Source: a virus
Lineage: Duplodnaviria > Heunggongvirae > Uroviricota > Caudoviricetes
Strand: one strand, 5' to 3'
IMG/VR virus record: IMGVR_UViG_2909257012_000004
DNA length: 54,350 bases
Shown here in pieces: positions 4,537-24,703 of the stretch. The translations under genes and the position numbers were made by a program. A model generated the notes under the pieces. That model was given only the letters and a program-made list of their open reading frames with translations. It did not search any database and was not told the origin of the DNA. Numbering within the stretch: the stretch's first letter is position 1; each line of letters begins with the position of its first letter.

Positions 4537-4589
4537 GGGCGGCAGAGCAGTCACGGAGTAAAACTGATACCGCCAAACGTCACCAGAAA
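4537..4589 (-). ncRNA. dicF: DicF small RNA (53 nt)
   Basis: Minus-strand sequence TTTCTGGTGACGTTTGGCGGTATCAGTTTTACTCCGTGACTGCTCTGCCGCCC matches the recalled DicF sequence exactly, including its 3' hairpin followed by a T-run. Confidence 0.9.
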
Positions 4590-21160: not shown

Positions 21161-21694
21161 ATGAACGCAAAAATCAGATACGGCCTGTCGGCTGCCGTTC
21201 TGGCGCTGATTGCCGCTGGTGCGCCTGCGCCTGACATTCTCGACCAGTTTCTGGATGAAAAGGAAGGTAACCACACCACGGCATACCGTGATGGCGCGGG
21301 TATCTGGACCATCTGCCGCGGTGCCATCCTGGTGGATGGCAAACCTGTCGTTCCGGGCATGAAGTTGTCGAAGGAAAAATGCGACCGGGTTAACGCCATT
21401 GAGCGTGATAAGGCGCTGGCATGGGTGGAGAAAAACATCAAAGTGCCATTGACCGAACCCCAGAAAGCGGGGATCGCGTCATTCTGTCCGTACAACATTG
21501 GTCCCGGTAAGTGTTTCCCGTCGACGTTTTACAGACGAATTAATGCAGGTGATCGCAGGGGAGCATGCGAAGCGATTCGCTGGTGGATTAAGGACGGTGG
21601 CAGAGACTGCCGTATTCGCTCAAATAACTGTTACGGTCAGGTATTCCGTCGTGACCAGGAGAGCGCGCTGGCGTGCTGGGGAATCGACAGATAA
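21161..21694 (+). CDS. SAR endolysin (GH24 lysozyme, R21-like)
   Basis: N-terminal signal-anchor-release segment (LSAAVLALIAAGAPA) and a lysozyme E...D...T region (EGNHTTAYRDGAGIWTICRG). Confidence 0.85.
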   Translation: MNAKIRYGLSAAVLALIAAGAPAPDILDQFLDEKEGNHTTAYRDGAGIWTICRGAILVDGKPVVPGMKLSKEKCDRVNAIERDKALAWVEKNIKVPLTEPQKAGIASFCPYNIGPGKCFPSTFYRRINAGDRRGACEAIRWWIKDGGRDCRIRSNNCYGQVFRRDQESALACWGIDR

Positions 21695-21783
21695 GCAGAA
21701 TATTTTGCTGAAAAATGAGGTTGGCCAACGCGGGCGGATAACACGAAGTCCTGTGAACTGGCAAAACCTAAGTGAATAAAAGT

Positions 21784-21826
21784 AAAAACCCCGTTTGTTG
21801 GCAGCAAGCGGGGTTTTGTTTTTATG
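21784..21826 (+). terminator. Terminator-like hairpin downstream of the endolysin
   Basis: AAACCCCG...CGGGGTTT stem followed by TGTTTTTAT. Confidence 0.5.
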
Positions 21827-22336
21827 GCAGTAAGCTATGGGAGGCTGCCTTGATTGATTTTAGCAAACTGATTAGGGAGTTGCGACTCATGATTAGTCAA
21901 TTACCAAACTGGAAATTTTTGCTGGTCTGGAGCATCCCTTTTTTATGGGTAGTATCCCAGTTAATTGTGGCAATTAAGGGGTAGCTATGTCAGACAAACT
22001 CATAACGCCGGCAAAGGTCCTGTGTGTGATTGTCGGTATTTCATTTTCACTAATGCTGGTTGCTCTTTTTCTGTCCCTCGCCTGGGTGATGTTGTCTTCG
22101 TCGGGGCTGCTGGGGTGACAGTGACTGATGACATCAGCAGAGCGCTGGCTTTTGCTATTAAGTGGGTGGCTGTTGGTATTGCTGTGTCTCCGATGCTGTA
22201 TGGGCTGGCAAAACTGGTCATTGCGCTGAAATCGTGAACTTTAAAAAGATGAGTGCTGAACTTATTCGGGCAATGGCATTTGCCATTCGTATTGTGGCCA
22301 TTGCTGTTCTGGTCTGGGCAATCCGTTGGTGGTGAT

Positions 22337-22831
22337 ATGAACCGTGTTCTGTGTGTGGTGATTATTGTCATGCTGGTAGCCTGTGGTGTGCTTAGTCTGG
22401 GGCTGAATCATTACCGCGATAACGCCATCACCTACAAAGCGCAGCGCGATAAAAAAGTCAGTGAGCTGAAACTGGCGAATGCCACTATTACTGACATGCA
22501 GCAGCGCCAGCGAGATGTCGCTGCGCTTGATGCCAGATACACGAAGGAATTAGCCGATGCGAGAGCTGAAAATGAAACTCTGCGCGCTGATGTTGCCGCT
22601 GGTCGTAAGCGCCTGCGGGTCAACGCCACCTGCCCCGGTACCGTGCGTGAAGCCACCGGCACCTCCAGCGTGGATAATGCAACCGGCCCCCGACTGGCAG
22701 ACACCGCTGAACGGGATTATTTCATCCTCAGAGAACGGTTGATGACAATGCAGAAGCAGCTGGAAGGGGCGCAGGAATATATCCGCACTCAGTGCACTAA
22801 GCTGGCTTTTTATTATCCGGAGGATACATGA
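22337..22831 (+). CDS. Rz inner-membrane spanin
   Basis: N-terminal transmembrane segment then coiled-coil; Rz1 embedded in the +1 frame. Confidence 0.8.
22572..22742 (+). CDS. Rz1 outer-membrane lipoprotein spanin, embedded in Rz
   Basis: [15 protein letters not shown] lipobox followed by a proline-rich sequence, entirely inside Rz. Confidence 0.75.
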
Positions 22832-23043
22832 AGAAATTACGGGTAACCGTAGAACCTTTTCAGGGAACAATTCCGTTCCGTATTTTGCAGCGTGGTCGTG
22901 TTCTTGTTGAAGGTTCGTTCAGTGGTAAATGTACGCAATTACACTCCCGGACCTTTCAGGTGAATGCCACGAATGAAGAGCTAACCGTGGAGTGTACGAT
23001 GAATGCCGCTAAATGCCGCATGGTATTACAGCCAGTGTGTTGA
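22828..23043 (+). CDS. Small hypothetical protein (71 aa, 4 Cys) translationally coupled to Rz
   Basis: ATGA overlap with the Rz stop and a GGAGGA Shine-Dalgarno. Confidence 0.45.
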
Positions 23044-23241
23044 GCGACCTTATTATCCATGCGCGGTATTGTCGCCGTATTCCTGCATTAACAGAGACCG
23101 CAGCCCGACAGGGAGACTCCTCTGCGCGAGTGTGCGGGGATAATCAAAAACGATACACACCGGGGTTTACCGCGTTAACGGAGCGCGGCGTTGTCCCCTC
23201 ATAGTCGCCTGTCCGGTGCGATGGTGGAAGAAACCGAACGT

Positions 23242-23442
23242 TCATTTCTCGTTATTTGTCATGCTGGCCGGGCGCAGATGCGTTGCATCTGTTGCCAGCC
23301 TTCTCCTGCAGGCTTCAATAACCCACGCTGAAAAGTTACCGGACCCTTTATGCTCAAGGGCGATGTTGATCTGTTCAATTATGTGATTGGGGAAACGGAT
23401 ATTGCGGGTTGTGGTTCTGCGGGTCCGGTTTTTCGATGACAT
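23242..23442 (-). CDS. Ribbon-helix-helix-like small DNA-binding protein (66 aa)
   Basis: Arc/CopG-like pattern RNIRFPNHIIEQINIALEHKG; AAGGAA Shine-Dalgarno; antisense to the late operon. Confidence 0.45.
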   Translation of the reverse strand: MSSKNRTRRTTTRNIRFPNHIIEQINIALEHKGSGNFSAWVIEACRRRLATDATHLRPASMTNNEK

Positions 23443-23483
23443 ATTTATTTCCTTTACTGATTGCCATATGACGGGGATTTTAC

Positions 23484-23849
23484 ATGGCTGAGCTTCGTAC
23501 ACTCCAGAGCAGAATCAAAACACTGAATACCCGACGGGTGAATATTCTGAAGGGGGAGCAGCGTCGTGTCAGTGGCAGTGCACGTGTTTCCCTCAAGCGT
23601 CATATCTGGCTGAGGGACGCCGGGCAGTGCTGTATCTGTGGTCGTGTGGTTGACCTCTGTGACAGTGAACTCGATCACCGAATTGCACTTCAGTTCGGTG
23701 GTGGTAATGAGGAGACGAATCTTTGGACGCTCTGTGCCGAATGCCATCGACAAAAGTCTGCTCGTGAAGCGGCGAGTGGTATGCCGGACCCGACGCTGCC
23801 GGAGGTGTCCGGAGGTAGTGGCAGAGAGGACGACATCATCGGACTGTAA
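23484..23849 (+). CDS. HNH endonuclease (packaging-associated)
   Basis: HNH motifs (CCICGR...ELDHRIALQFGGGNEETNLWTLCAECHRQK) directly upstream of the terminase genes. Confidence 0.8.
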   Translation: MAELRTLQSRIKTLNTRRVNILKGEQRRVSGSARVSLKRHIWLRDAGQCCICGRVVDLCDSELDHRIALQFGGGNEETNLWTLCAECHRQKSAREAASGMPDPTLPEVSGGSGREDDIIGL

Positions 23850-23941
23850 CCCAACCCGGGGGGGGTATCATCCGGCGTAAAAAACGATCGCTTTGGACAC
23901 CGCGCCCCCTCTCACGCAGAGAAAAAATTCCCGTTTCAGGG

Positions 23942-24068
23942 CAGTTAACATGTTAACTGGCTGCCCGGGCATTTTTGCGGTTTTTATCTTTATTATTCAG
24001 TTTGTTGTGCGGAAAAAATGTTAACAGGCTTTTTCAGCAAATGTTAACCAGGCAGCAGTTAACATTTG
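23942..24068. repeat. Four GTTAACA-containing repeats upstream of terS (candidate cosB-like terminase-binding elements)
   Basis: cagttaacatgttaactg, aaatgttaacagg, aaatgttaaccagg, cagttaacatttg within about 130 bp. Confidence 0.45.
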
Positions 24069-24139
24069 CGGCATGAGACGCCGGGAAAAATGGGCTGAAC
24101 CATACCCGGCTGAGTGCGTTCTGGACCCGGGAGGAGGCT

Positions 24140-24703
24140 GTGCTGACAACGCAAAAACGAAAATTTGCGCTGGCGCTCATGTCCGGGAAAAACAAAACAG
24201 CGTCAGCCATTGCCGCCGGTTATTCGGCGAAGACCGCCAGGGTTAAAGGCTCGCAGCTGGCAAAAGATCCTGAGGTGCTTGCGTTTATAGCCCGTAAACA
24301 ATGCGAGACGGTGGAGGTGGATGAGGTTCCTGTTTACCGGCAGAAAAAATCAGAGCAGGAGGATAAACCCCGTCGCCGTGAGGCGGCTGCAATACCACAG
24401 CCGGACGAAAACAATCTGGAGATGCCACCGTCCGCGGTGATGTCTCCTGGTATTGAATATATGGAGGATGGTCTTCCCGATCCGGTGAAAGCCATGGGGC
24501 GGATCCTGGTGGAAAACCTCTGCATTGATCCGAAACTGGCACTGGATGCGGCCTGGCGTCTGGCGCAGTTCACGCACCATAAAAAAGGGGATACCGGGAA
24601 AAAATCGGCAAAAGGTGATGCCGCGAAAAAAGCGGCTAACCGTTTTGCGGTGCCACCGCCCCCCCGACTGGTGGTGAATAACGATAATGAGGGCAACGGA
24701 TGA
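24140..24703 (+). CDS. Terminase small subunit
   Basis: 187-aa ORF directly upstream of and overlapping the large terminase gene. Confidence 0.75.
   Translation: MLTTQKRKFALALMSGKNKTASAIAAGYSAKTARVKGSQLAKDPEVLAFIARKQCETVEVDEVPVYRQKKSEQEDKPRRREAAAIPQPDENNLEMPPSAVMSPGIEYMEDGLPDPVKAMGRILVENLCIDPKLALDAAWRLAQFTHHKKGDTGKKSAKGDAAKKAANRFAVPPPPRLVVNNDNEGNG

Follow-up and report, generated by a model that had tools for sequence, protein, structure and literature searches.

In phage lambda, the junction between the lysis gene Rz and cos carries the right-end morons bor, lambdap78/ybcV and lambdap79/ybcW, a set of variable content, some members of which lie antisense to the late operon, with a GC (guanine plus cytosine) content below that of the flanks. 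Bor is, according to the lambda record, an outer-membrane lipoprotein with a serum resistance phenotype. In phages with HK97-type packaging, HNH genes adjoin cos and the terminase genes (PMC3592412). Here we describe the equivalent junction in a stretch of 54,350 nucleotides from a virus of the Caudoviricetes (IMG/VR record IMGVR_UViG_2909257012_000004; the whole stretch is called the window below), in which two small open reading frames (ORFs) lie between Rz and an HNH endonuclease gene: ORF71, which encodes 71 amino acids on the late strand, and a convergent gene for a 66-amino-acid protein on the opposite strand. With the lambda morons these genes share the variable Rz-to-packaging junction, the lower GC content and, in one case, the antisense orientation; unlike Bor, neither product has a signal peptide.

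The interval is an ordinary variable cargo spot with two catalogued accessory genes and not a new system. A homology search confirmed the first-pass annotation, made from the sequence alone, in that both ORFs are real genes, but neither of them is novel: ORF71 belongs to PHROG 2571 and is annotated in RefSeq as 'hypothetical protein', and the antisense gene is a member of a named family, annotated in RefSeq as 'YlcI/YnfO family protein' and referred to below as ylcI. Both proteins are identical to RefSeq entries and occur in hundreds of E. coli genomes. We consider it reasonably probable that they represent two unrelated, independently mobile accessory genes at a hypervariable lysis/packaging junction of a widespread E. 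coli lambdoid prophage, including what is proposed below on their expression and binding.

Two independent genes at a variable junction

With 100% identity, bases 22700-23600 of the window match the prophages of many E. coli genomes, most of these being ST131-type strains (JJ1886 is an example), as well as three records of induced phages. A match to this stretch was found in 2041 of 5426 complete E. coli genomes, 1040 of them with a place covering at least 80%, and the identity is at least 99% in 356 records. In the related phages and prophages that were compared (given by L numbers where they have to be told apart), the content between Rz and the packaging genes varies. It differs among L002, L003, L004, L007, DLP12 and lambda, and includes bor/ybcV/ybcW, Rha with a TonB-like gene, a KilA-N protein, or ORF74 with a TonB-like gene. 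The GC content of ORF71 (0.455-0.48) and ylcI (0.455-0.51) is modestly lower than that of distal Rz (0.60-0.62) and of the HNH and terminase genes (0.54-0.58). The classic moron position proposed in the first-pass annotation thus agrees with the variable content, the lower GC content and the antisense orientation of ylcI; the transcription signals are dealt with below.

The two genes had been treated together as one feature. This did not hold, since they are unrelated units, each of which is found without the other. The ORF71 family is present without ylcI in L003 and L007-L012, and ylcI is present without the ORF71 family in L002, DLP12, lambda and L015. The 198-bp gap that separates them in the window is a remnant left after a deletion of about 600 bp relative to L004 (3423-4020) and L002. 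This deletion is bounded by imperfect 9-bp direct repeats (AACCGRACG) and took out a TonB_C-like gene; its junction is at 23232-23240. Within the gap, the non-coding segment 23050-23169 shares 87% identity with DNA that precedes Nu1 in the Salmonella prophage L003 (4158-4276); in L002 and L004 it is conserved too, in front of the TonB-like gene. A structured RNA or small RNA in the gap was considered and rejected, since there was no Rfam match at the gathering threshold or at E<=1, and no folding signal on either strand (z-scores of -0.9 and +0.4).

ORF71, a member of PHROG 2571

Judged from its sequence, ORF71 is a genuine gene and more than a chance ORF. The four cysteines (residues 35, 56, 62 and 71) and the good ribosome-binding site (GGAGGA, three bases before the ATG) described in the first-pass annotation are both there. 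The family profile, phrog_2571, is of unknown function and was matched by all 17 family members tested, ORF71 and 16 others, with E-values down to 7e-28; no Pfam or NCBIfam family was found for ORF71. A collection of 5.8 billion proteins yielded 49 homologues, most of them from E. coli and the others including Salmonella; among the matches listed, the full-length ones mostly have 74 amino acids. Compared with this usual member of PHROG 2571, the window copy is without three residues (SAA) near the C-terminus and additionally overlaps the Rz stop codon. Moreover, a profile search of 1.8 billion representative proteins gave 45 matches, among them remote homologues (72-81 amino acids, 25-35% identity) that keep the alternating strand pattern. 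Copies that have diverged to about 77% DNA identity still possess the Shine-Dalgarno sequence, as GGAGGA, GGGGGA or AGGAGA.

The ratio of non-synonymous to synonymous substitution rates (dN/dS) against diverged copies is 0.29-0.45. Between ORF71 and the close copy in L004 (22828-23040 versus L004 3001-3222) there are 4 synonymous and 17 non-synonymous changes, corresponding to a dN/dS of about 1.3, with counts that are small. Because of these two sets of values, ORF71 appears to be constrained overall, yet to undergo fast amino-acid change between close relatives.

A coupling of ORF71 to Rz had been suggested from an ATGA overlap. The overlap exists in the window, where the ATG (22828-22830) and the TGA of Rz have bases in common, but it is no general feature. 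Rz of the Salmonella copy L003 stops at a TAG located 24 nt upstream of the ORF; the corresponding codon in the window is CTG, and the Rz frame then continues for nine more codons to the TGA inside the ATGA. As a consequence, Rz has 164 amino acids in the window and 153-154 in L003 and L007, the C-terminal extension (22802-22831) being 10 residues long, LAFYYPEDT plus one. In L007 the ORF begins 443 nt after Rz. By this sequence comparison, the ATGA overlap stems from the loss of the ancestral Rz stop (TAG to CTG) in the E. coli copies compared.

These observations bear on the reading of ORF71 as an accessory or regulatory part of the lysis cassette, for instance a spanin- or endolysin-associated factor co-translated with Rz, which we regard as unlikely. 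Close copies of ORF71 do lie behind Rz whatever the terminase type, and the overlap with Rz is present in the window; the overlap, however, is due to stop loss, and in the Salmonella copy and in L007 it is replaced by a gap. Remote members are found at quite different places: L010 has its copy between the Q antiterminator and the holin, and in L011 and L012 it comes after the major tail protein and before the repressor and Ant region. Since remote relatives occur elsewhere in late operons, ORF71 is better regarded as mobile cargo than as lysis machinery. Its sequence contains no signal peptide, lipobox, hydrophobic or membrane segment, and the product would therefore not be exported. The similarity to XepA is no better than that to dozens of unrelated beta-sandwiches.

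The fold predicted by AlphaFold2 (AF2) is a soluble six-strand beta-sandwich, with a predicted local distance difference test (pLDDT) score of 79. A possible relationship to the FNIII-A domain of the tail-tip protein J (Pfam PF24801) is a weak and unproven lead. Three of 17 remote family members match this domain in a bulk scan (best E 0.02; individual rescans gave E 0.02 for P0194 and 0.03 for P0201), and in a 225-amino-acid relative the domain is C-terminal, with a weak Phage_Tail_Tip match ahead of it. A comparison by hhalign with the FNIII-A domain of the J protein of this same prophage gave a probability of 1%. Moreover, unlike FNIII-A of protein J, ORF71 is free-standing, has about half the domain length and is encoded outside the tail gene cluster.

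In the account that we prefer, ORF71 would be the last cistron of the late strand, made late via Q-antiterminated read-through of the lysis transcript, and its product would be a free-standing small soluble binding module of benefit to phage or host, and neither a lysis protein nor a metal-binding protein. The first-pass annotation had taken the four cysteines as a notable feature, but they are not a trait of the family: among close relatives C35 is invariant, C56 near-invariant and C62 and C71 vary, and in remote homologues position 35 is Ala, Thr, Leu or Ile and position 56 is His, Tyr, Leu or Thr. A protein that depends on its cysteines, whether for zinc binding or for disulfide bonds, might be suggested by their number (four in 71 residues) and by the conservation of C35 and C56 in close relatives. 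This reading is very improbable and was rejected, the cysteines not being conserved across the wider family, showing no CxxC/HxxH spacing and being accompanied by no export signal. The cysteines, like the ATGA coupling, are accidents of this lineage.

The antisense gene ylcI

The 66-amino-acid ORF had been placed on the opposite strand just upstream of the HNH gene and credited with a good ribosome-binding site. Both statements hold: the gene is divergent from the HNH gene at a distance of 41 bp, and AAGGA precedes its ATG by seven bases. The ATG at 23442 was taken as the start, although the program-made ORF list extends to a GTG at 23502, because all homologues begin with MSSKN or MSTKN. From profile matches, the product is a member of the YlcI/YnfO family: it reaches 69 bits against PF13132 (DUF3950; cut-off 25) and 35.2 bits against NCBIfam NF041551 (cut-off 30), and matches phrog_949 with E 8e-33. 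The search for homologues yielded 660, nearly all from E. coli. In an alignment of 20 members there are 30 invariant columns, all within residues 1-46, and the C-terminal tails are unalignable. The first 50 residues are near-invariant, with the core MS[ST]KN...NIRFPN...NFSAW.IE.CR, which is laid out as a basic Arg/Thr-rich arm, NIRFP, a helix, G-x-x-N-F-S and a second helix, followed by the variable tail.

The family is also present in lambda itself. A tblastn search of phage records revealed at NC_001416.1 48109-48303 (-) (L014 2710-2904) an intact 64-amino-acid ORF whose product and K-12 YlcI are identical. The right cohesive end is about 200 bp away, and the ORF is not annotated in this record. 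In the DLP12 prophage of K-12, ylcI is located between ybcW and nohD. In every context ylcI is oriented away from the first packaging gene, both where the packaging genes are lambda-type (cos-Nu1) and where they are HK97-type (HNH-TerS). When the lambda-type and HNH-type contexts are compared, the homology ends exactly at the start codon and the upstream DNA is unrelated; an operator or promoter shared upstream of ylcI across contexts was rejected, since homology begins only at the ATG.

About 30 'species representative' assemblies of unrelated taxa (L017-L055), among them Streptomyces, Cohnella, Pedobacter, a Nanosynbacter metagenome-assembled genome, Pseudomonas and others, contain the lambda right-end ORF with 87% identity to the query, on contigs of 0.3-3.6 kb or at contig ends. 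This looks like contamination with lambda control DNA and not like real distribution. A wider YlcI diversity drawn from GTDB species genomes was discarded, most of it being such contamination.

The first-pass annotation had called the protein Arc/CopG-like. The predicted strand-helix-helix layout fits this description, but in none of the tests run did the similarity reach significance. In the AF2 monomer the N-terminus is extended and is followed by helices at residues 19-32 and 34-55, with the loop GSGNFS between them and a pLDDT of 84-88 in the core; the strand of a ribbon-helix-helix protein could pair only in a dimer, and the model is that of a monomer. YlcI and P22 Arc (the sequence of which was confirmed against PDB 1arq/1arr) can be placed in register at N-x-R-x-P, with Gly 19 and Ser 24 residues after the Asn. 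With hhalign, the Arc sequence gave a probability of 2.0%, the Arc family alignment A6 one of 4.8% and Mnt one of 0.3%. No ribbon-helix-helix Pfam family appeared at E up to 10 in any of the 20 YlcI members, and no PDB sequence relatives were found for the ORF71 or the YlcI family, the matches (retinol-binding protein, crystallin) being at chance level. A ribbon-helix-helix fold of YlcI is plausible on the basis of the model, and the protein is probably a small DNA-binding regulator.

Two other readings of YlcI start from the same data. According to the first, YlcI is a packaging accessory that binds near cos and aids the terminase or the HNH protein to recognise or cut DNA. The predicted fold is plausibly DNA-binding, and the gene is always at the start of the packaging module, close to cosN in lambda, beside nohD in DLP12 and next to the HNH gene here. 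Against this, ylcI runs in the opposite direction to every late and packaging gene, two unrelated terminase systems are accompanied by one and the same core of the protein, and ylcI is missing from phages with ORF74 and a lambda-type terminase (L003, L007). Furthermore, packaging of lambda DNA in vitro is not known to require more than terminase, IHF, gpFI and proheads. We regard a packaging role as quite unlikely. In the second reading YlcI would be an antitoxin-like protein of the ribbon-helix-helix type that has no partner beside it, and would either be left over from a toxin-antitoxin module encoded elsewhere or serve as the antidote to one; this seems equally improbable to us. The HicB-like phrog_497 gave the sole borderline match of YlcI (E 0.006), the nearest structural neighbours of the model include TacA1, ParD2 and Rv0300 (VapB-type), and the C-terminal tail, which is variable, is similar in this to the tails by which antitoxins of this kind bind their toxins. 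However, all these similarities are below significance, no candidate toxin gene adjoins ylcI in any context seen, and the PADLOC defence models gave no match for YlcI, or for ORF71, at E up to 0.1.

We return to two unrelated accessory genes as the preferred account, in which the position, the family membership, the conservation pattern and the independence of the genes and the variability of the site are those described above. As to expression timing, dimerisation, DNA binding and any target, we infer that YlcI may dimerise to form a ribbon-helix-helix DNA-binding regulator, that in the prophage state a promoter of its own would drive ylcI, and that convergent late transcription would shut it down after induction or in lytic growth. 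The convergent overlapping transcript pairs that were reported from K-12 as present in half or more of the RNA-seq samples studied include ybcW-ylcI (PMC12288877). A more far-reaching proposal can be made, to which we give little credence: YlcI/YnfO might be an overlooked prophage-state DNA-binding regulator, common to lambda and about one third of the complete E. coli genomes, the core of which recognises a conserved lambdoid site; it might reduce leaky transcription of late or packaging genes in the lysogen, or hinder relatives that superinfect it, and be switched off at induction by convergent late transcription.

Several points weigh against the preferred account. A consensus scan of 22500-24300 gave two promoter-like and two terminator-like sites, compared with 1.5 and 1.7 in shuffled sequences, and none of them is well placed. 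As the upstream DNA of ylcI differs by context, the transcription evidence from K-12, which is indirect and the only evidence on expression, may not be transferable to this prophage. In the case of ORF71, the excess of non-synonymous changes between close copies could reflect relaxed constraint. Finally, the literature searched contained no functional study of DUF3950, YlcI or YnfO, and no experiment on either family.

The best promoter-like site of the scan, at 24047-24018 (-), consists of TTAACA-18-TAACAT with an extended TG and is located between HNH and TerS, where cos is presumed to lie. It points at HNH and ylcI, and an antisense transcript could start from it.

Prophage setting and comparison with known systems

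The coordinates of the features are collected in Table 1. The prophage has a packaging module of the HK97-type (HNH, TerS, TerL). JJ1886 has, in this order, genes for a holin, a YdfR-like protein and lysozyme, three tiny hypothetical ORFs, the gene for the 'lysis protein' (Rz), a 216-bp gene for a 'hypothetical protein', the oppositely oriented gene for the YlcI/YnfO family protein, and the genes for the HNH endonuclease, the small and then the large terminase subunit, and the capsid.

Table 1. Features of the lysis/packaging region of the window (positions in the 54,350-nucleotide stretch).
Feature	Position	Strand	Evidence
Lysozyme	21161-21694		Pfam Phage_lysozyme
Rz (i-spanin), 164 amino acids	22337-22831	+	Pfam Phage_lysis E 4.4e-51; phrog_13 E 1.4e-77
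Rz1 (o-spanin lipoprotein), inside Rz in another frame	22557-22742	+	Pfam Rz1 E 1.7e-21; phrog_3198 E 3e-31
Shine-Dalgarno GGAGGA of ORF71	22819-22824	+	Read from sequence
ORF71, 71 amino acids, RefSeq WP_000736382.1	22828-23043	+	phrog_2571 E 1.1e-25
Non-coding remnant between the convergent genes	23044-23241		blastn against L004 and L002; junction sequences
YlcI/YnfO family protein (DUF3950), 66 amino acids, RefSeq WP_000095741.1	23242-23442	-	PF13132 E 3.1e-19
Shine-Dalgarno AAGGA of ylcI (plus-strand TCCTT)	23450-23454	-	Read from sequence
HNH endonuclease, HK97-type packaging module	23484-23849	+	Pfam HNH E 2.7e-7; phrog_589 E 1.8e-44
TerS (small terminase subunit)	24140-24703	+	Pfam Terminase_2 E 1.3e-8; phrog_641 E 7.6e-68
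TerL, ORF of 553 amino acids	24700-26361		Assigned via the JJ1886 annotation 'terminase large subunit'

The stretch between lysozyme and Rz (21700-22336) is a second variable insertion site within the lysis cassette. In the window it contains only tiny hydrophobic ORFs, for which JJ1886 annotates three hypothetical proteins of 43, 51 and 28 amino acids, and in related phages it holds a P22_AR_N/ORF11CD3 antirepressor-like gene. Elsewhere in the prophage, Rfam matches were obtained for the DicF small RNA (4537-4588, -), the sok antitoxin RNA (11016-11191, +), two tRNAs (15712-15784, + and 15888-15961, +) and STnc100 (16661-16850, +).

Both gene families are very common in prophages. The presence of an unannotated YlcI beside cos in lambda makes a simple genetic test possible in the best-studied phage. 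If YlcI is indeed a regulator expressed in the lysogen, it would be an added component of lambdoid prophage biology; if this is false, both genes would merely be more late-region cargo.

Among the regulators described so far, Arc and Mnt of phage P22 (PF03869) have in common with YlcI the small size, the basic N-terminal arm and the N-x-R-x-P strand motif, as well as a Gly and a Ser with matching spacing ahead of helix B and the strand-helix-helix layout predicted for YlcI. They differ in that there is no significant sequence or profile similarity between them and YlcI, and in that Arc and Mnt sit in the immI region with known operators, whereas for YlcI no operator is detectable. The closest described relative is YlcI of K-12 itself (b4589, DLP12 prophage), which is 86.5% identical to the window protein over residues 1-52 and differs from it in the C-terminal tail (ATDATHLRPASMTNNEK). 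The neighbour of the K-12 gene is the cos-Nu1/nohD region and that of the window gene is the HNH gene, but K-12 YlcI and YnfO of the Qin prophage belong to the same family as the window gene and share with it the orientation and the position at the edge of the packaging module.

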